Origin: a virus | Taxonomy: Duplodnaviria > Caudoviricetes | DNA length: 54,769 nt | Strand: one strand, 5' to 3' | IMG/VR virus record: IMGVR_UViG_3300005532_000251 | Coordinates: 1 to 54,769 of that record | Shown here: positions 2,888 to 18,121 of the stretch, piece after piece | How positions within the stretch are numbered: the first letter of the stretch is position 1 | How the letters are laid out: each line of letters begins with the position of its first letter | The notes under the pieces: model-generated | Seen by the model: only the letters and a program-made list of their open reading frames with translations | Told to the model about the DNA's origin: nothing | Databases searched by the model: none | Position numbers and translations under genes: made by a program

Positions 2888-3445
2888 ATGCGAGGAGCGA
2901 CAACGAACACGGCGAAAAGCGGCGGCGAGCCTCTGGCTCCGACGTTTCTCTATGGCTTACTCGAAGTTGGCACGGGCCTATTCTGCTCATTTCAGCAGCT
3001 TATGACGACGCATGACAGCATCGTCGGCATTCTGCAAGGTGGAATCATTGTCCCCTCGCACATGAGCGCGCAGGCTCTGCTCGCGTTCATTCAGAGCAAT
3101 ATGGACAAAGATAATCGTATTGCCTGGACGGTAGCAATCGTCACACAGGTTCTGTATTGGGGCGCGATGCTGCACGCCGGGCCATTCCAGCGAAGGCTCC
3201 TACACCGGCTGACGATCTGGGGATTCTTCGGCCTGGAGATTGTCACCGACCTCTGGTATAGCATCGCAACGAACACGACGCTCGGCGGCGCGTTCGTATG
3301 GATCTTTAATTTTGGTAACGGCGGCTGGCTGGTCAGCCTCTGCTATATCGCAGCGATGAGTGCCGGATCGATCTTCCTGGTATGGCGCGGCCTCTCGCGG
3401 CTCGGCAAGTGTGCAAGTGTGGTCTTTGCGAGCGAAAACCACTAA
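2888..3445 (+). CDS. Multi-pass membrane protein (Spd-like candidate)
   Basis: GGAGG RBS; 3-4 hydrophobic segments; lies directly upstream of the ATPase. Confidence 0.6.
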   Translation: MRGATTNTAKSGGEPLAPTFLYGLLEVGTGLFCSFQQLMTTHDSIVGILQGGIIVPSHMSAQALLAFIQSNMDKDNRIAWTVAIVTQVLYWGAMLHAGPFQRRLLHRLTIWGFFGLEIVTDLWYSIATNTTLGGAFVWIFNFGNGGWLVSLCYIAAMSAGSIFLVWRGLSRLGKCASVVFASENH

Positions 3446-3458
3446 GGAGGGATACGAG

Positions 3459-4970
3459 ATGGGCGATGAGCACGAAGAGGACAATGATGGCTTTGTCCCT
3501 CTCTCCACGGGAACCGAGGCGGGCATCGCAGCGTTCTTCGTGGGCGCGCCGTTTCTGGGCATGGCTTCGGCCATGCTCGGACTCGGCGAGGCTGGTATCC
3601 TGGCCGGCGTTATCGGCGGCGGGGCGCTCGCAATCGCCGCAAAGGTCGCGGTTGATGGCAATGCAGGAAAGAATCCTCACGTTACCCTGCCTGGGCTTAC
3701 ACAGCTACGCTCAGCCAACTGGCGCGCGCTGTTCGTGCCTACCGATATCGATGACCAGGTGCAGACCTTGACAACGAACGAAGCGTCGAGTCTTTCTCAC
3801 AATGAAAGCGAAGAATACATGGATCTTGGCAGCACCTTGCGTCCGCATGCCAACGCGATCTTCTCTGGCCGCAAGGCGCTCTTTGGTGCTTCGGATGCCG
3901 GCAAGTCGAATGCTGTCGCCGTGATCTGTGAGGAGATCGCGAAGTTCGGCGCGCCGCTCTTCCTGCTCGATACCGAGGATGAATACCGCGCGCTCTGCGA
4001 TAAGCGGTACTTTCCGCGCCCGGTGTGGGTGGAGAGTGCTCGCATCGCGCCATCGCAGGCATACGACTTTGCGCAGTGGGCGATGAATAAGCGCGCCCAG
4101 GTCGTCGTTAACCTGCAAAGCTACGAGGATGACGAGGCGGCCTGGCTGATGATCGATCTTATCAAGGGTATCCGAGCATGGGAGGAATCGCATGATCGCA
4201 TCCCATGCGAGGTCATCTTAGACGAGGCGACGGTGTGGCTGCCGCAGAATGTCGCTGAGAGCACCCTTGCACGCATCATGGTCGCTGATCCAGAGGCAGG
4301 CGAGGAAGGCAAGCAGATCTCATTGCTGGCGCTCTTACAGCGGGCCTTCTTTTCAGTCGTCGTGCGCAGAGGACGCAAGCGCGGCATGGGCTTTACCTTC
4401 GCTGCGCAGCGCATCGCTGAGATCGACAAGCGCGCGCTGCAAGCATCCTGGCTGATCCTGATGAAGCAGGCACAGCCGGCGGATTTCCGCATCTACAAGG
4501 AATTTGGCATCGAGGGAGACGCAGCGCTCTCTCTTGCCAAAGGCGAGGCGTTCGTCCAGGCCCCAGGCAAAACAATGGAACGACATCAATTCCGGCTGCG
4601 TCGCTCCCCGCATGGCGCCCACGCGCCGGGATTGGCGGAGCTGCGCAAGGCCGTTTCCGCGAGCGTTTCCCAACCTGGAAACAGCGGAAACGACGGAAAC
4701 ACCAATGGAAACAGCGCGGAAACGCCTCTACAGGCCAATGCAGCCAAGATCATTACGGATGTGTTTCCTGTTTCCCAGGATGGAAACGACGACCATTCGA
4801 GCGCAGGCAATGGCCTCCCTGTTTCCCCGGAAACGCGGAAACACATCGCCGCGATGCGCGAGGCAGGATACCCAGATCGGGACATTGCGCAGCTCGTTGG
4901 CTTATCCGGGCGCAAGTATGCGCTCTATCGGCAAGTCGTGGCATCGCTTGGCTCTACCCGCGAAGCATAG
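3459..4970 (+). CDS. Membrane-anchored FtsK/HerA-superfamily (DUF87-like) ATPase with C-terminal HTH
   Basis: AAGGAGG RBS; N-terminal TM pair; Walker A GASDAGKS; Walker B VILDEA; RRGRKRG arginine-finger region followed by AAQR; C-terminal REAGYPDRDIAQLVGLS HTH-like segment. Confidence 0.8.
   Translation: MGDEHEEDNDGFVPLSTGTEAGIAAFFVGAPFLGMASAMLGLGEAGILAGVIGGGALAIAAKVAVDGNAGKNPHVTLPGLTQLRSANWRALFVPTDIDDQVQTLTTNEASSLSHNESEEYMDLGSTLRPHANAIFSGRKALFGASDAGKSNAVAVICEEIAKFGAPLFLLDTEDEYRALCDKRYFPRPVWVESARIAPSQAYDFAQWAMNKRAQVVVNLQSYEDDEAAWLMIDLIKGIRAWEESHDRIPCEVILDEATVWLPQNVAESTLARIMVADPEAGEEGKQISLLALLQRAFFSVVVRRGRKRGMGFTFAAQRIAEIDKRALQASWLILMKQAQPADFRIYKEFGIEGDAALSLAKGEAFVQAPGKTMERHQFRLRRSPHGAHAPGLAELRKAVSASVSQPGNSGNDGNTNGNSAETPLQANAAKIITDVFPVSQDGNDDHSSAGNGLPVSPETRKHIAAMREAGYPDRDIAQLVGLSGRKYALYRQVVASLGSTREA
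4653..4842. repeat. Cluster of 13 GGAAAC/GTTTCC hexamers (clt-like)
   Basis: GTTTCC at 4653, 4665, 4763, 4770, 4821; GGAAAC at 4677, 4686, 4695, 4707, 4718, 4782, 4829, 4837; they fall in different reading frames. Confidence 0.8.
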
Positions 4971-4971
4971 G

Positions 4972-5069
4972 GACAAGTACCGAACAAGCGCGGTACTTGT
5001 CTGTAGTAGAACACGCAATACCAGCAAAATAACACAGATAGACAAAGCAGTACCGCGCAAGTTCGGTAC
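4972..5069. promoter_or_regulatory. Paired palindromic operators / parC-like centromere
   Basis: GACAAGTACCG-N8-CGGTACTTGTC (4972-5001) and GTACCG-N8-CGGTAC (5050-5069), near-inverted copies of each other, upstream of parM. Confidence 0.65.
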
Positions 5070-5093
5070 AAGTTCAGAGCAAGGAGGAACACA

Positions 5094-6182
5094 ATGAACA
5101 TGAGATGGTATGGCTATGGGCATGACTTTGGCAACTCGGAGATCGGCGGCGTCACCGTCTGCGATGGCAAGATGCTCTCCGCATCTATTCCGACTGCCAT
5201 CGCAAAGATCGATACGGCAGCCATGCGCAATCTCGGCATCGACATCGCGGCAAGAGATGCACACATCATAGGGTTCGCCGATGAGGAGAGCACCTGGGCC
5301 GTCGGCGATCTCGCTTTACAACAGACGAGCGCCGCCTGGCATGGACGTGGCGATATCCAGAGATATGCGAGCAAGCAGAGCCTGCGCGGCTTGCTCACGG
5401 TGGCGTCCTCGCTCATCCCTGATCGCGAGTTCGGTCTCTACGTCGTCACCGGGCTGCCAGCGGAGATCTACATGAAAAACGATGCGTTGCGCAAAGACAT
5501 CAAGGCAGCCCTGGAAGGTCGGCATGTCTTCACGACTGACGGCGGCTCTACATGGCGCATTGCCCACGTTGAGGTTGCAAAAGTTGTCATGGAGGGCGCC
5601 GGGGCACTCATCGCCTACGGTAGCCAGCAAGAGCAGAATAGGTACGCTGCTGTCATCGATGTTGGAGGCCGCACAACGGATCTCTATGTGGCCCGTGCAG
5701 GCGTGCCGCAGGCTGAGTTCTGCCGTGGCAAACCGCTGGGAGTTGCCACGGCTGCTGAGGCGATCAAGGCTGCCTTCGAGGAGAAGCACGAGTATCCGCT
5801 GACGGACCTGGAGGCCCGCGACATTCTTCATGCCTATGTCAGTCATGGGAGCAAGAGCTACCCGGAGATTACCGCGTATGGCAAGGAAATCAATCCGCTT
5901 GCCATCGAAAAGGTTGTAAAGCAAGCCGTTACCGATGTTGGCGCCGAGATCGTCTCGTTCACAGCCAGCTCCTGGCGGCAAAGCGAGCGCGGCGCTGTCG
6001 CGGTGAGCTTTAAGCCAGTGCTCTGCATCGGCGGCGGGACCTTCTACTTCTATTCGTCGCTCAAAGAGCGCATACCGCATATCTCGCGTGTCAGTAATCC
6101 GGTGCATGCCAATGCTATCGGGTATTGCACACTCGCAGCGCAGCTCTATAACCGTCGTCCAACGCAGAGCGCAGCATCGTAA
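5094..6182 (+). CDS. parM: ParM/StbA-family actin-like partition ATPase
   Basis: Actin phosphate-1 GHDFGNSEI, VVTGLP, MEGAGA, phosphate-2 IDVGGRTTD, IGGG, ANAIGY; AAGGAGG RBS. Confidence 0.88.
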   Translation: MNMRWYGYGHDFGNSEIGGVTVCDGKMLSASIPTAIAKIDTAAMRNLGIDIAARDAHIIGFADEESTWAVGDLALQQTSAAWHGRGDIQRYASKQSLRGLLTVASSLIPDREFGLYVVTGLPAEIYMKNDALRKDIKAALEGRHVFTTDGGSTWRIAHVEVAKVVMEGAGALIAYGSQQEQNRYAAVIDVGGRTTDLYVARAGVPQAEFCRGKPLGVATAAEAIKAAFEEKHEYPLTDLEARDILHAYVSHGSKSYPEITAYGKEINPLAIEKVVKQAVTDVGAEIVSFTASSWRQSERGAVAVSFKPVLCIGGGTFYFYSSLKERIPHISRVSNPVHANAIGYCTLAAQLYNRRPTQSAAS

Positions 6183-6184
6183 TC

Positions 6185-6490
6185 ATGGAGATCGTCATGC
6201 CGAAAGATCGTGAAAAGTTTCAGTACTATGAGGTCGGAATCCTGCGCGATTCCGACCTGCACCGAGATATCCTTGCCGATGCTGAGGCATCGCAGATGCC
6301 GGGGCATATTCCGTTGCTGCTCGCCGCTCGGCTCTCTGAGTACTATGCATTGCGTCGAGCTGGCGCGATCCCTGCTCTGTCAGCCACGGCCTCAAAACAA
6401 GGAGAGCATATCGAAGAGAGCGATGTCGTCACAGAGGCACCGCCAGGCGTGGCTGCGCAGTCAGCCCTCGGCTATGAGTGGCCGGATTAA
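6185..6490 (+). CDS. Putative ParR-like adaptor
   Basis: Small ORF directly after parM, with an ordered N-terminus and acidic flexible tail. Assigned mainly by position. Confidence 0.55.
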   Translation: MEIVMPKDREKFQYYEVGILRDSDLHRDILADAEASQMPGHIPLLLAARLSEYYALRRAGAIPALSATASKQGEHIEESDVVTEAPPGVAAQSALGYEWPD

Positions 6491-9374: not shown

Positions 9375-9439
9375 TTCATTGATAAAAATGAATGAACCGT
9401 CTTCCAGGCAAGCAGAGTTGTTGCGGAGGGAGCGATAAC

Positions 9440-10804
9440 ATGGAACGGGCACAGTTATCAGCAGCACGGCACAAAAAGCACTGGTCTCTCGACGAGGCAG
9501 CCGCAGAGATCGGCATTGACCGCTCAACGCTCCTGCGTTGGGAGAAAGGGAGGACATCACCTCAGCCGATGCATATTCGCAAGCTCTGCGAGGTCTATGG
9601 GAAATCTGCGCATGAATTGGACCTGGAGGACGAACCCCCTCCGGTGCATCATATCCAGGGCGATATCGGAGACAATGAGGTCATCGCCGAATTCTCGCGC
9701 CAAGATCTTACCATGCGTCTCCTACAGATTGCCTGGAATTGGTCTGCACGCACTGCCCGATATCAAGACCTCCAGCGACTGATCGTCCTGGAGGTGGAGG
9801 GTAGCGATATGTCTGATGACCTCATCAGCCGGCGCGATGCACTGCGACGCCTGGCGCTGTTCCCCGTCGAGTTTTGTAGTCTTTCGGCGCTTATCCCTGT
9901 ACTCTCACGTCCCACCGAGGAGATCCTGACCTCCTGCGCAGCAGGCATTACTGCCTGCTGGGAATTGCGCAAGGGTCACGATCTCGCCTTTGCAGGCGAA
10001 GTCATTGAGAGATATCTGCCTACCTTGCAAGCTCTCTCTCAGCAAGGATCAAGCCACAACAGAACCGAGGCGGCGCATTTGCTCACCCAGGCGCTGCTCC
10101 TCAAGTCTATCCTGGCCCGGCATCTTGCTGGCTCGGCGCAGGCACTGCATTACGCAAAGCAAGCAGCCATGATCGCGCATCAGGCACATGACTCAGTATT
10201 GGAGATCGTCGTTGCCAGGAATGTCGCAACGGTCTACGATTCAATGCAGGATGTGCGGCCCTGGCGCGATGCGGCAGAGCGCACCGTGATGCTTGTCACA
10301 AACGCCTCGCACGTCCCTCCGGCCATTGCCAGCACCGCATATATCGGCCTGGCGAATGCCCTGTCCTATACGGGAGAGAAGCAAGATGCGCTCTCAGCGC
10401 TCAAAAAAGCAAAGGCGCTCTTTTTTGCCCAGGACCCCGGCGCGACACTTCCGATCTTCGCTGACTATGGCTGGGCAAATGTCCTTCTCAATGAAGGACA
10501 TGTCTACTACCATCTCGGCGATCCTGCGCCTTCCATTGCCGCCCTCGATCAATTACAGGAAGAGCGTGCCGCCAACGCCACCTGGAAAGCACAAGCCTAT
10601 ACCGAGCAGACCCTGGCCGAACTGATGCATCCTTCGCGTGATATGGAGTATGCCATTGATCGCTGGATAAAAGGAGCGCAGATCGCGCGCCAACTTTCCA
10701 GTCAGCAGCGTCGCCGTGAGAGTCTTTCGGCGCTCGTTGCTATGCAGTCTGCCTGGCCGGGTGAACGACGCATAGCTGAGCTTCGCGAGCACATCGTGCG
10801 CTGA
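9440..10804 (+). CDS. XRE-family HTH regulator with long helical-repeat (TPR-like) domain
   Basis: N-terminal LSAARHKKHWSLDEAAAEIGIDRSTLLRWEKG..PQP HTH_3 pattern; Ala/Leu-rich helical repeats follow. Confidence 0.85.
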   Translation: MERAQLSAARHKKHWSLDEAAAEIGIDRSTLLRWEKGRTSPQPMHIRKLCEVYGKSAHELDLEDEPPPVHHIQGDIGDNEVIAEFSRQDLTMRLLQIAWNWSARTARYQDLQRLIVLEVEGSDMSDDLISRRDALRRLALFPVEFCSLSALIPVLSRPTEEILTSCAAGITACWELRKGHDLAFAGEVIERYLPTLQALSQQGSSHNRTEAAHLLTQALLLKSILARHLAGSAQALHYAKQAAMIAHQAHDSVLEIVVARNVATVYDSMQDVRPWRDAAERTVMLVTNASHVPPAIASTAYIGLANALSYTGEKQDALSALKKAKALFFAQDPGATLPIFADYGWANVLLNEGHVYYHLGDPAPSIAALDQLQEERAANATWKAQAYTEQTLAELMHPSRDMEYAIDRWIKGAQIARQLSSQQRRRESLSALVAMQSAWPGERRIAELREHIVR

Positions 10805-16091: not shown

Positions 16092-17165
16092 ATGACAGTC
16101 TATGGCGTCACCGTCGGCTCAAAAGGGCCGCAACTCAACCCGCAAGTCATCACAGCGATGCGGGATCTTGGTCTTACCTCGCTGCGCTTTAATCTGTCGG
16201 CCACAGTGCTGACCGATGGCCGTGGCAGCTATAACTGGGCTGTCGCTGATAACTTTGTGCAGCAGTGTAACGAAGCCGGCATCGAAGCCTACTATGTGCT
16301 CAAGGATTTGCCGGCGGCCTGGCTTGACAGTCAAGGATTACCGACGCCTGCCGGGATGCTCGCGTATGCTTCGGCGGTAGCGAGCCGCTATAACGGCAAG
16401 ACTGGACATGGCAAGATCGGCGTCCTTGAGGTCGGCAATGAGGCGTACAGCCTCAGCTCGACGTTTTACGGCGCGCAGCTCGCCGCTGCGATGAACGCAG
16501 TGTACCAGCCTATCAAGAATATCAATGCTGATCTCCTGGTTGTCCCTGGCGCGCTCTTGCAGCGCAATACGCAGACCATTGAGAATGGCACGGCGACGCT
16601 TTTACAGCAGGCTGCGCACAGCATGGATGCGCTGAATTGCCATACCTACTTCGGTATCCCTGGAAACGGCCATATCGATCCCTCAGATGGCAGTCTCCCA
16701 AATATTCCCAGCTTCCCACAGTACATCGAAGCGATGCAGGGTGTGCTGGCCCAGCACACCATAAGCCTGCCGATCTGGGTGACAGAGTTTGGCTGGGCCA
16801 CCACGGCGAACTTTGGCCGCGCATTGCGCACCGTCGTCACTCCTGAACTGCAATGGCAATATGAGAAGTATTGCTACGACCAGGCGGCAAAGCTCGGAGT
16901 TCAACGCATGTACGTCTTTACCCTCGGCTTTGCGAACCCGCCTGACGGCACATCGCTGGTCCAGGCAGGCGGCGCGAAGACGGTGGCCTACAACGGTCTC
17001 AAGGCATACATTGCCGGCCAGCCGAGTAGCGACCCACCGCCGAATAATGGGAACGACGGCGGCAATGGTGGGAACAGTGGAGGCGGATCAGGGCCAACGA
17101 GCGCGCAGATCGCGCAGGCGGTATCGCTGCTCGATGAGGCGAAGCAGTTGCTGAGTGGTTCCTAG
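16092..17165 (+). CDS. Clan GH-A glycoside hydrolase (GH5/GH39-like)
   Basis: Acid/base EVGNE, DALNCHTY, nucleophile PIWVTEFGW; Gly/Asn linker and short C-terminal helix. Confidence 0.75.
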   Translation: MTVYGVTVGSKGPQLNPQVITAMRDLGLTSLRFNLSATVLTDGRGSYNWAVADNFVQQCNEAGIEAYYVLKDLPAAWLDSQGLPTPAGMLAYASAVASRYNGKTGHGKIGVLEVGNEAYSLSSTFYGAQLAAAMNAVYQPIKNINADLLVVPGALLQRNTQTIENGTATLLQQAAHSMDALNCHTYFGIPGNGHIDPSDGSLPNIPSFPQYIEAMQGVLAQHTISLPIWVTEFGWATTANFGRALRTVVTPELQWQYEKYCYDQAAKLGVQRMYVFTLGFANPPDGTSLVQAGGAKTVAYNGLKAYIAGQPSSDPPPNNGNDGGNGGNSGGGSGPTSAQIAQAVSLLDEAKQLLSGS

Positions 17166-18121
17166 ATCCCGAACATTTCTTCGAGTTTGTCGCCGTAGGG
17201 GTTCTCAGCGCTGTGGAGCTGCTTCATATACATGGAGGTGGTTTTGAGGTCATTGTGACCGAGGCGTTCACCGATTTCAGAGAGTGAGGCGCCGGCCTTC
17301 TCCATATTGATCGCAAACGAGTGGCGCAGAACATGACCGCGCGGATCGTCCAGATACCTGTCGCAGATATCGGAGATGGACTGTGATGAGAGCGGCCCGC
17401 CATAGTTGTTGTGCGAAAGCGAAATCCAAATCGGCGAATCATTCTCGATGGAAAGCAAGGCTTCACCATAGACGGCGTGAAGGTATTCCATGAGTGCAGT
17501 TGCAGTCTTCGGCTTCAAGACATCGTGCATCACTTTGCCGCCCTTACAGCGGGGCCATGTAACCAGGATGCGCCGCGCTGAAATTGAGAGATGTCCATAG
17601 CGCATCGCCGCCAGCTCTCCGATGCGTCGCCCGGTCGTAAATCCAACGGAAAGCAGCGCGAAGTCACGCATGCCAGCAAGAGTTCGGCGATCAATCAAGG
17701 CAAGTCGCGCTGCAATCTCCTGGCTTGTCATGGGGAGGGCCGCATGCACGCTCACGCGTGGGCGACGCTCTGCAAGGTCAATAGGGTTCACGGCGACGAT
17801 CCTCCCGGTTCTGGCATAGCGATAGAAGCTACTGAGTATCGCCAGGCGCTGATTATGCGTTGCTGGCGCAATAGCGCGGCCATCGCGGCCTATCGATGCC
17901 CATGTCTCAGCAAATCGCGCTACCAGTGTAGCATCACTGTCGAGATCGCGTCCAGCTCGTTGCAACGCGGCGCGAAACTCTCGAATGGTCCATTCATAGG
18001 CTGTCTTCGTCTTCTCACTGCCAGAACGTCGCGTTTTCGTGGCAAGCCAGGTGGTAATGCACTCTTCAAGCGCACGAAGCCGGTCTGGAACAGCCTGGAG
18101 CATCCCGGAATACTCATCCAT
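17162..18121 (-). CDS. Tyrosine recombinase (XerC/D-like)
   Basis: Catalytic set TTGRRIGE (R), KGGK (K), HVLRH, LGH, TTSMY; N-terminal core-binding domain and no arm-binding domain. Confidence 0.93.
   Translation of the reverse strand: MDEYSGMLQAVPDRLRALEECITTWLATKTRRSGSEKTKTAYEWTIREFRAALQRAGRDLDSDATLVARFAETWASIGRDGRAIAPATHNQRLAILSSFYRYARTGRIVAVNPIDLAERRPRVSVHAALPMTSQEIAARLALIDRRTLAGMRDFALLSVGFTTGRRIGELAAMRYGHLSISARRILVTWPRCKGGKVMHDVLKPKTATALMEYLHAVYGEALLSIENDSPIWISLSHNNYGGPLSSQSISDICDRYLDDPRGHVLRHSFAINMEKAGASLSEIGERLGHNDLKTTSMYMKQLHSAENPYGDKLEEMFGI

Follow-up and report, generated by a model that had tools for sequence, protein, structure and literature searches.

Why should one short DNA word be written thirteen times into the coding sequence of a single phage gene, and what could read it? 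The question is raised by a stretch of 54,769 nucleotides, hereafter the window, which covers positions 1 to 54,769 of IMG/VR virus record IMGVR_UViG_3300005532_000251, a provirus of a tailed phage (Duplodnaviria; Caudoviricetes) estimated to be 66% complete. The gene lies at 3459–4970 on the + strand and encodes a predicted membrane-anchored ATPase of the HerA clade with a C-terminal helix-turn-helix (HTH) domain. The word GGAAAC and its reverse complement GTTTCC form an array at 4653–4842, which has no strand of its own and lies in the DNA encoding the linker between the ATPase core and the HTH. Such arrays recur across the family of this ATPase, and the repeated word follows the type of the HTH rather than the phylogeny of the ATPase.

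The initial annotation of this DNA had reported eight copies of GGAAAC and five of GTTTCC within 190 bp, arranged in three groups that each run from GTTTCC to GGAAAC. An exact recount agrees on both points: GGAAAC starts on the + strand at 4677, 4686, 4695, 4707, 4718, 4782, 4829 and 4837 (n = 8) and GTTTCC at 4653, 4665, 4763, 4770 and 4821 (n = 5), which gives the orientations --+++++, --+ and -++. A purine stands directly 3′ of GGAAAC in 13 of 13 copies, and the word can therefore be written as GGAAACR. The remaining ~54.6 kb of the window hold only 16 further copies. The total of 29 compares with 15.3 ± 3.7 expected and was reached in 0 of 100 dinucleotide shuffles, and with 13 copies in 190 nt GGAAAC forms the strongest hexamer cluster of the window, the next unrelated word reaching 7. 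The array occupies the linker DNA and extends into the first HTH helix. Four of the copies fall within a 9-bp tandem repeat (2.8 copies according to Tandem Repeats Finder), and at 4718–4735, again with no strand assigned, GGAAAC and an adjoining element, ..CTNCACAGGC, make up a second conserved DNA word within the array. The array is identical in the covering contig examined among the sequencing runs (X7). A search of Rfam gave a chance-level match only (E = 0.73), and a promoter and terminator scan of the region 4300–5300 found no promoter-like site on the + strand and nothing on that strand near the array.

The array is real and under selection at the DNA level. Nine of the words are read in frame 0 (GN five times, VS four times), three in frame 2 (AET, VFP and PET) and one in frame 1 (RKH); the readings GN, ET, VS and FP given by the initial annotation are all right, and RK has been found in addition. 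The annotation had taken these frames as a sign of selection on DNA rather than on protein. This view is now backed by recoding, by an 18-mer shared in two reading frames and by the footprint of the array in a distant relative. In the recoding analysis the amino acids were kept and the codons redrawn, either from the phage codon usage (20,000 draws) or from the usage of the gene itself (5,000 draws). With phage usage the recoded gene held on average 0.8 and at most 6 copies, and with the more conservative usage of the gene itself 1.55 and at most 7, against the 13 observed. The words use the rare codons GGA, GTT and TCC, each of which makes up 12–13% of its codon family.

The comparison was extended to homologous loci, which are designated by L-numbers; 73 were gathered, and the analysis used 67 of them, those whose ATPase core was recovered by tblastn. 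All nine loci with an array inside the gene exceed recoding, the observed count being reached in 0–4 of 5,000 draws, and their array copies fall in two to three frames. When the array of the window is aligned with that of L073, 67 of 78 motif columns are identical compared with 50 of 127 other columns, and the two arrays share the spacing series 12, 9, 12, 11, 45, 7 and the doublet GTTTCCNGTTTCC. The 18-mer GGAAACAGCTTCACAGGC is identical in L073, where it is read as LETASQ, and in L018, where it is read in another frame as RKQLHR; a close variant stands at the same array position in the window. In arrays that lie after the stop codon, motif columns are likewise more conserved than spacers (0.77 versus 0.31, 0.91 versus 0.65, and 0.87 versus 0.80). 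In the two closest relatives, the proteins P0002 and P0004, the residues encoded by the words are conserved in 48 of 60 comparisons, and the other linker residues in 32 of 72; this is a protein-level proxy, and the difference could come from selection at either the DNA or the protein level. Slippage may explain the four copies in the 9-bp tandem repeat, but not the inverted and out-of-frame copies.

The presence of arrays in the family was assessed in 28 non-redundant loci whose core identity is 34% or higher and whose downstream DNA is long enough. The region examined began where the ATPase core ends and reached 350 nt beyond the stop codon; within it, the count of the commonest hexamer was compared with the maximum over all hexamers in 300 shuffles. 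A significant short-repeat array, reached by at most 4 of 300 shuffles, is present in 18 of the 28 loci, and in 5 more the count was reached by 8–12 of 300 shuffles. Clear arrays are also found in L063, L064, L073 and L076 among 19 more distant loci, of which L066 scored by count only (1 of 200 shuffles). The initial annotation had held that a lack of repeat clusters in homologous genes would speak against it; clusters are clearly present at the same place, with different words. Two loci, L006 and L008, scored through scattered copies and were not counted as arrays. Hexamer clusters 600–800 nt downstream in L019, L035, L036 and L043 were dropped from the counts, as they lie inside the downstream gene and have the look of coding repeats. 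Dense CTTTCA/TGGACA repeats were observed in the downstream membrane and coiled-coil gene of L036 (about +610 to +860 past the ATPase stop) and L035 (about +590 to +740), and their appearance is that of coding repeats in a heptad-rich protein rather than of binding arrays.

Two layouts can be distinguished. In the window, L018, L041, L058, L005, L038, L039, L040 and L043 the array is placed in the linker DNA that precedes a small HTH, inside coding DNA and 130–430 nt before the stop codon. In the other layout the array follows or overlaps the stop codon; a first arm of repeats leads to a core resembling TTTGAGCTCAAA, and a second arm has these repeats in inverted orientation. The near-palindromic core TTTGAGCTCAAA, with 0–3 mismatches, stands between inverted arms after the ATPase stop in L013, L014, L016, L017, L019 and L026, and the arms around it differ between lineages. 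The same core also occurs within the in-gene arrays of L018 and L058. The family is of modest size, with 104 representatives at E ≤ 1e-30 among 1.84 billion proteins and a match in 18 of 169 genomes of the Ktedonobacteria class set at E ≤ 1e-20. The ATPase found no match among the GenBank phages, and the PLSDB plasmids yielded no close relative, only haloarchaeal DUF87 proteins that are 22–25% identical. Single-protein scans of viral and metagenome contigs found no relative.

The repeated word differs between loci, and each word goes together with its own type of protein C-terminus. GGAAAC accompanies the type ..G(R/G)(R/K)Y.(L/V/I)Y(R/K)(Q/K). CCGAAA or CGAAAT is found with the NGDEYWM type (CCGAAA with NGDEYWMV in L038 and L039), CGAACT with the AGDQFWQL type and GGGAAC with the GNRDYSRV type. 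GACAGAC occurs with a winged HTH of the type GKD.A...(I/L)KQL in L004, L019, L036, L059 and L061. The words CACACA (in L013, L026 and L064), ACAACA, CATTCA, GTGGTAC, GTTCGAAC, GAGTGA, TGGTAAACC and CGAAG(T/G)GG each go with a C-terminal type of their own, and the association extends to CGAAGTGG versus CGAAGGGG (L005, L076). The recognition helix of the window, ..GLSGRKYALYRQ.., has the same GRKY sequence in L018 and L073, and L041 carries GGRY in its place. When GGAAAC was counted in 47 non-redundant loci, the three with the exact GRKY helix were found to hold 8, 12 (13 counted in full) and 17 copies, L041 holds 10 copies of GAAAC, and the remaining 43 loci have at most 3 GGAAAC. Local comparison of the C-terminal tails gave a median score of 190 for same-word pairs (19 pairs) and of 33 for different-word pairs (306 pairs). 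Among the tails of L023, L021, L025 and L014 some members with two tandem winged-helix domains were observed, with HTH_Crp_2 reaching 31.3 bits in L023.

The similarity of the ATPase cores does not follow the words. The core of the window is 67% identical to that of L013, which carries CACACA, and 62–64% identical to those of L016 and L017, which carry GTGGTA; these loci and L019 are its nearest relatives, and all have other words. GGAAAC is shared only with L018 (core identity 59%) and L073 (27%), and GAAAC with L041 (40%). Since the loci nearest by core carry other words and the same-word locus L073 is only 27% identical, simple whole-gene descent does not explain the distribution. A tree of the ATPase core (42 rows) rejects monophyly of the word groups, with p values of the approximately unbiased test of 2e-69 for GGAAAC, 8e-5 for GACAGAC, 3e-4 for CACACA and 5e-47 for GAAGKGG. 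The comparative test suggested by the initial annotation, whether the words of homologs co-vary with their HTH, has a positive outcome in the array survey, the tail scores, the counts in the 47 loci and the core tree.

What kind of protein carries the array? Residues are numbered here from the GTG at 3360, where the open reading frame begins, and not from the ATG at 3459. The latter is the likely start, as AAGGAGGG stands 8 nt upstream and the homologs begin at the MGDE/MSDE position; it gives a protein of 503 amino acids. Two membrane helices are predicted at residues 50–72 and 76–100 (DNA 3507–3659, + strand), where AlphaFold2 models long helices. Kyte–Doolittle averages over 19 residues reach 1.6 only in windows starting at 54–58 and 75–81, apart from one window at residue 185. 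This two-helix N-terminal segment is kept across the family and looks like a membrane hairpin. In one subfamily of the ATPase (L073 and the protein P0018) an additional Cys/His-rich segment (CxxC ... CxxC) was observed to precede the membrane helices. The ATPase core with the Walker A motif GASDAGKS follows at residues ~150–415 (3807–4604, +). The block means of the predicted local distance difference test (pLDDT) are 83–95 for most of residues 150–410, with dips to 75 and 58, and G181, K182 and D204 are among the invariant residues of the homolog alignment. Between core and HTH lies a disordered linker of ~70 residues (pLDDT below 50 at residues 420–488; DNA 4617–4823, +), which is unalignable among distant homologs. 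The three helices of the predicted C-terminal HTH (490–530; DNA 4827–4949, +) are modelled at residues 490–501, 506–512 and 517–530.

By sequence and fold matches the ATPase is placed in the HerA clade and is not a member of the FtsK/SpoIIIE/TraB family. Pfam assigns DUF87 with 28.8 bits, above the cut-off of 23.2. HerA 4d2i is the top match of both the PDB profile search (E = 5.5e-9), in which other HerA entries also lead, and Foldseek (8e-11), in which SIR2-HerA, DUF4297-HerA and the packaging ATPase B204 of STIV2 are among the fold matches. No FtsK is found among the PDB profile and Foldseek matches listed, and Pfam gave only DUF87/HerA for the ATPase. Equivalence to the repair helicase HerA is not supported: the NCBIfam model HerA_Thermprot scores 22 bits against a cut-off of 800, Pfam and NCBIfam scans detected no NurA-like neighbour, and the N-terminus is a predicted membrane hairpin.

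The genes next to the ATPase are also part of the picture. The gene g3 (2550–2885, +) encodes a small acidic conserved protein of unassigned family and is an upstream partner of the ATPase gene; homologs with 42–59% identity lie just upstream of the ATPase in L004, L005, L014, L015, L024, L025, L035, L036 and L041 (tblastn), where L015 duplicates L014 and L024 duplicates L004. It is followed by g4 (2888–3445, +), which encodes a conserved hydrophobic protein with several long hydrophobic stretches, a putative multi-pass membrane protein judging from its sequence. With 69–73% identity in L004, L014, L015 and L024 and 36% in L026, g4 exceeds the ATPase itself in conservation. The conserved neighbours of the ATPase are g3 and g4 upstream and, in most relatives, a membrane and coiled-coil protein downstream, for which no homolog was detectable in the window. 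No family was found for g1–g4 and the genes after parM in Pfam, PHROGs, PADLOC and NCBIfam. The first open reading frame after the ATPase in L041 and L026 encodes a small protein that begins MY(V/F)IYAL(V/I)DPRD...YVGQT, by its motif a putative GIY-YIG nuclease.

Downstream of the ATPase gene of the window lies a putative partition set, which the initial annotation had not noted. It begins with separate inverted repeats (GACAAGTACCG..CGGTACTTGTC, GTACCG-N8-CGGTAC) at 4972–5069, with no strand assigned, which are a parC-like candidate by their sequence and position upstream of parM. At the same place in L018, repeats of the GTACTGGTAC type flank a promoter-like TTGACA-N17-TAAAAT. The ParM/actin-like partition ATPase is encoded at 5094–6182 (+) and matches ALP_N (4.3e-17), MreB-like_C (2.6e-8) and PHROG 691, 'partition protein' (2.8e-24). 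The small gene directly after it (6185–6490, +) is a candidate for a ParR-like adaptor, with a ribbon-helix-helix fold suggested by its sequence; it found no family match in PADLOC and NCBIfam, and a homolog stands at the same place in L018 (44% over 48 amino acids). ParM is found in five loci including the window, the others being L014, L015, L018 and L041, and four of the five are non-redundant. Array and parM are separated in L014 by a small gene together with a palindrome pair of a different kind.

The occurrence of a full ParMRC-like set (4972–6490) together with a tyrosine integrase (17162–18121, − strand) in one tailed phage is an observation of its own and suggests a plasmid-prophage lifestyle, or both lifestyles. 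The phage genes of the window include a large terminase, a portal, a protease/capsid-like protein and a tape-measure protein besides the integrase. The names of the homologs point to Ktedonobacteria, which are mycelial Chloroflexota, and the sequence is present in soil and mine metagenomes (13 DNA runs listed, no RNA run). A 470-amino-acid protein with an XRE-type HTH and tetratricopeptide repeats, encoded at 9392–10804, has the build of a peptide-sensing regulator; a homolog with 31% identity was noted upstream of the module in L014 and L015, on the opposite strand. At the left end of the window g1 (1–1941) encodes a protein of 646 amino acids for which a PDB search was empty and the Atlas feature search gave weak leads (0.87) to clusters of DnaB_2, RepA_N, Phage_rep_O and HTH_36.

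We propose that the HTH has its cognate site in the array within its own gene, a reading which the co-variation and the anatomy of the protein make probable. This anatomy, in which two hydrophobic helices precede a HerA-like core and a linker leads on to three C-terminal helices, would suit a membrane pump that stays in place and reads DNA. By analogy with the Tra proteins of Streptomyces and with FtsK and KOPS, the cognate site may mark the DNA of the element for loading and translocation by a membrane ring, a step toward which the balance of the comparison leans slightly. The HTH domains of the assembling ring would bind the repeated words and thereby select the double-stranded DNA of the element itself. 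The membrane-bound motor would then load at the array and pump DNA across a membrane or septum, possibly for transfer, for spreading among hyphal compartments or for segregation when the mycelial Ktedonobacteria host forms spores. The pump and its array would work beside the separate ParM/ParR/parC partition set. For the chain as a whole, an HTH-bound cis array in linker DNA that serves clt-like loading of the pump, we give a cautious preference. We infer both the HTH as the binder and, by analogy, binding in the service of loading for translocation.

Several points weigh against this proposal. The co-variation is not proof that the HTH is the binder, because the array and the HTH-coding DNA are less than 300 bp apart, and a single recombination event would move both together, whatever binds the array. 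The core tree is a quick LG+G4 tree, and the word and HTH groups were named after the identity table had been seen. The HTH part of the structural model has low confidence (pLDDT 56–66), and the Pfam matches of the HTH in the window (HTH_38 and HTH_23) are weak and below cut-off. HerA-clade proteins are more familiar in end resection and anti-phage defence than in conjugation. Outside the array, the 16 copies of GGAAAC (5 on the + strand and 11 on the − strand) compare with ~15 expected for the whole window, so that there is no enrichment there and no KOPS-like genome-wide excess or clear skew. The array region also yields a stable RNA fold (z = −4.05), as expected because of the inverted copies. 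In 5 of the 28 loci, L004, L025, L028, L034 and L035, the count test gave no significant array; short inverted repeat arms are visible by eye in the first four, and L035 has no array by count or by eye. No counterpart of the TTTGAGCTCAAA core, which is present in the arrays of many relatives, was detected in the window. Only protein sequences represent the two closest relatives, P0002 (77% identity) and P0004 (69%), which makes them no more than a proxy in the comparison bearing on DNA selection.

Other explanations of the array have to be weighed against a loading site. An operator array, at which the HTH or another repressor would regulate the downstream genes (parM in the window) or the pump itself, which may be toxic, could account for the layout of most relatives, where little more than the array separates the ATPase stop from the ribosome-binding site of the next gene, which in most cases encodes a membrane protein; tra genes of Streptomyces are under kil/kor control (PMC4447253). 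We consider it unlikely, as in the window and eight further loci the array lies inside coding DNA 130–430 nt before the stop, 12–17 sites are far beyond the needs of an operator, the scan of 4300–5300 found no promoter-like site on the + strand, and a transcription factor fused to a membrane ATPase would in our judgement be unusual. The array may instead serve self-recognition in immunity: a HerA-like ATPase would attack incoming DNA, and the cognate array carried by the phage would inactivate or titrate it, in the way that aba, a DNA element inside bstA, acts on BstA. HerA ATPases are common in defence, PADLOC gives HerA matches down to 6e-9, and SIR2-HerA and DUF4297-HerA are among the fold matches. 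The aba elements of BstA are specific to each homolog and overlap the bstA gene (PMC8585504), and cognate protein–DNA pairs of this kind would give the same co-variation. Immunity nevertheless appears quite unlikely, given that Pfam, PADLOC and NCBIfam detected no Sir2, DUF4297, NurA or other nuclease effector adjacent to the ATPase, the PADLOC matches are confined to the Walker region, the conserved partners look like membrane proteins and a ParMRC set adjoins the ATPase in the five loci (four non-redundant) named above.

The words could also be iterons of a replication origin for a ring-shaped initiator-helicase. The origin of phage lambda lies inside gene O, and inverted pentamers flank the core of the SV40 origin. 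In the relatives, inverted repeat arms flank a short core that is richer in A+T, the 12–17 sites are about two rings' worth, and HerA has a helicase/translocase fold. This reading is very unlikely: a membrane anchor fits a moving replicative helicase poorly, the ATPase has no Rep family match in Pfam, PHROGs and NCBIfam, and the region 4.4–5.2 kb shows neither an A+T-rich dip nor a skew turn (GC 0.55–0.60 at 4401–5200). The weak replication-initiator leads for g1 point to a replication module elsewhere. Since parM starts 252 nt after the array and is followed by a ParR-like gene, and parC sites lie upstream of parM in known systems, the array might be part of an extended parC centromere bound by the small protein encoded after parM. 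That is highly improbable when most loci with arrays have no ParM nearby, the window and L018 carry their own GTAC-type repeats directly upstream of parM, and in L014 the array is separated from parM by the small gene and palindrome pair. It could finally be asked whether the array has a function as DNA at all, or is a by-product of a low-complexity GN/VS/ET linker grown by slippage, or acts solely as a hairpin of RNA or DNA. Such a view is in keeping with the stable RNA fold and with the four copies that fall in the tandem repeat, and selection on protein could suffice to keep the GN, VS and ET residues in the closest relatives (48/60 versus 32/72). The by-product reading has already been largely refuted by the recoding, by the L073 alignment and by the two-frame 18-mer, and little credence is left to it: the recoding nulls fail in all nine in-gene loci, the copies stand on both strands and in three frames, L073 has the same word and spacing at a core identity of 27%, the 18-mer is identical in two frames, and many relatives have their arrays in non-coding DNA. 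A hairpin alone needs no arms built from one short repeated word.

The preferred reading, a clt-like loading site of a membrane pump, can be carried further, although we put this forward tentatively and think it rather doubtful: a tailed phage of mycelial Chloroflexota may have a conjugation-like membrane pump derived from HerA, with an exchangeable cassette of HTH and word that marks the cargo. Such a phage or plasmid-prophage could move without virions, as naked double-stranded DNA, between hyphal compartments or cells. The cassettes would be shuffled among pump lineages and would keep co-resident elements from mobilising each other, and the pump would be convergent with TraB of Streptomyces.

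If the proposal is true, double-stranded DNA pumping guided by cis repeats is not confined to actinomycete plasmids. It would have originated a second time, with a motor drawn from another ATPase clade and on a tailed phage, in the second large group of soil bacteria that grow as mycelia and form spores, which would bear on how mobile elements cope with multicellular, septate hosts. The family would then provide a natural set of matched protein–DNA specificities, in which at least eight words each have an HTH type of their own on a common scaffold, and which could be used for studying the evolution of short-word recognition. The array clearly illustrates a regulatory DNA code superimposed on the sequence that encodes a disordered linker, a point of consequence for annotating genes and for recoding them experimentally. 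Given the comparative evidence, a small domain and a fragment of 190 bp would be enough to test the hypothesis directly.

A literature search, which did not extend to supplements or to the 2004 FtsK–HerA survey, found no description of this pump-array system, and parts of it can be recognized in several known systems. In phage lambda the O protein has its binding-site repeats written into the coding DNA of its own inter-domain linker. The array studied here is likewise placed within the linker-coding DNA of its presumed reader; it differs in that the lambda system functions in replication, belongs to another protein family and has an adjoining A+T-rich region that is absent here. FtsK with its gamma domain and the FtsK orienting polar sequences (KOPS), and SpoIIIE with the SpoIIIE recognition sequences (SRS), would be alike in combining a membrane-tethered double-stranded DNA pump with a C-terminal (winged) HTH for short oriented words. 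The tail of L013, the closest relative, matches Pfam FtsK_gamma (PF09397) with E = 1.8e-6 and 28.0 bits, below the gathering score of 30.6; the tail of the window has no FtsK_gamma match in Pfam, only the weak HTH_38 and HTH_23. Unlike KOPS and SRS, the words here are clustered at one place and not spread and skewed over the replicon, and the ATPase belongs to another clade.

Two further systems share single traits with the one described here. TdtA of the Thermus thermophilus element ICETh1 is a HerA-like ATPase needed for DNA donation in transjugation (PMC5365140). It is similar to the present protein as a HerA-family hexameric ATPase of a mobile element, located at the membrane and with a proposed role in export of double-stranded DNA. 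Its authors describe TdtA as working with a NurA nuclease and report no detectable DNA-binding domain or known cis site for it, whereas the protein of the window has a predicted HTH and a cognate-looking array and no NurA was detected next to it. BstA of Salmonella prophages has in common with the present ATPase a homolog-specific cognate DNA element that overlaps its own gene. However, aba consists of one 63-bp element, which is located at the gene's 5′ end and has two CCCGCC repeats at its termini (PMC8585504), and BstA is neither an ATPase pump nor membrane-anchored.

A close parallel is offered by the Tra proteins of Streptomyces plasmids, which bind 7–9 bp clt repeats through a C-terminal winged HTH (PMC3583192, PMC4447253). 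TraA of pWTY27 has two N-terminal membrane helices and binds 7-bp repeats, and its clt begins inside traA with an overlap of 16 bp (PMC3583192). TraB of pSVH1 and TraA of pWTY27 resemble the predicted protein of the window in uniting a membrane anchor, a ring ATPase and a C-terminal HTH in one polypeptide. Their clt loci resemble the array in having several short direct and inverted repeats that adjoin or overlap the 3′ end of the gene, in words that differ between elements, and in the mycelial host. The differences lie in the motor, which is HerA-clade DUF87 here and FtsK_SpoIIIE in the Tra proteins; in the position of the array, which is wholly inside linker-coding DNA here, clt being mostly outside the gene; and in the carrier, here a tailed temperate phage of Chloroflexota that has terminase, portal and tape-measure genes. 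The initial annotation had drawn a parallel both to TraB and clt and to FtsK and KOPS. The former holds as a fair analogy; as to the latter, the ATPase belongs to the HerA clade, and outside the array GGAAAC has no KOPS-like enrichment or clear skew. Because the ATPase fails the TraB/FtsK family test, we regard the pump and its array as probably working like the Tra–clt system without being a member of it.

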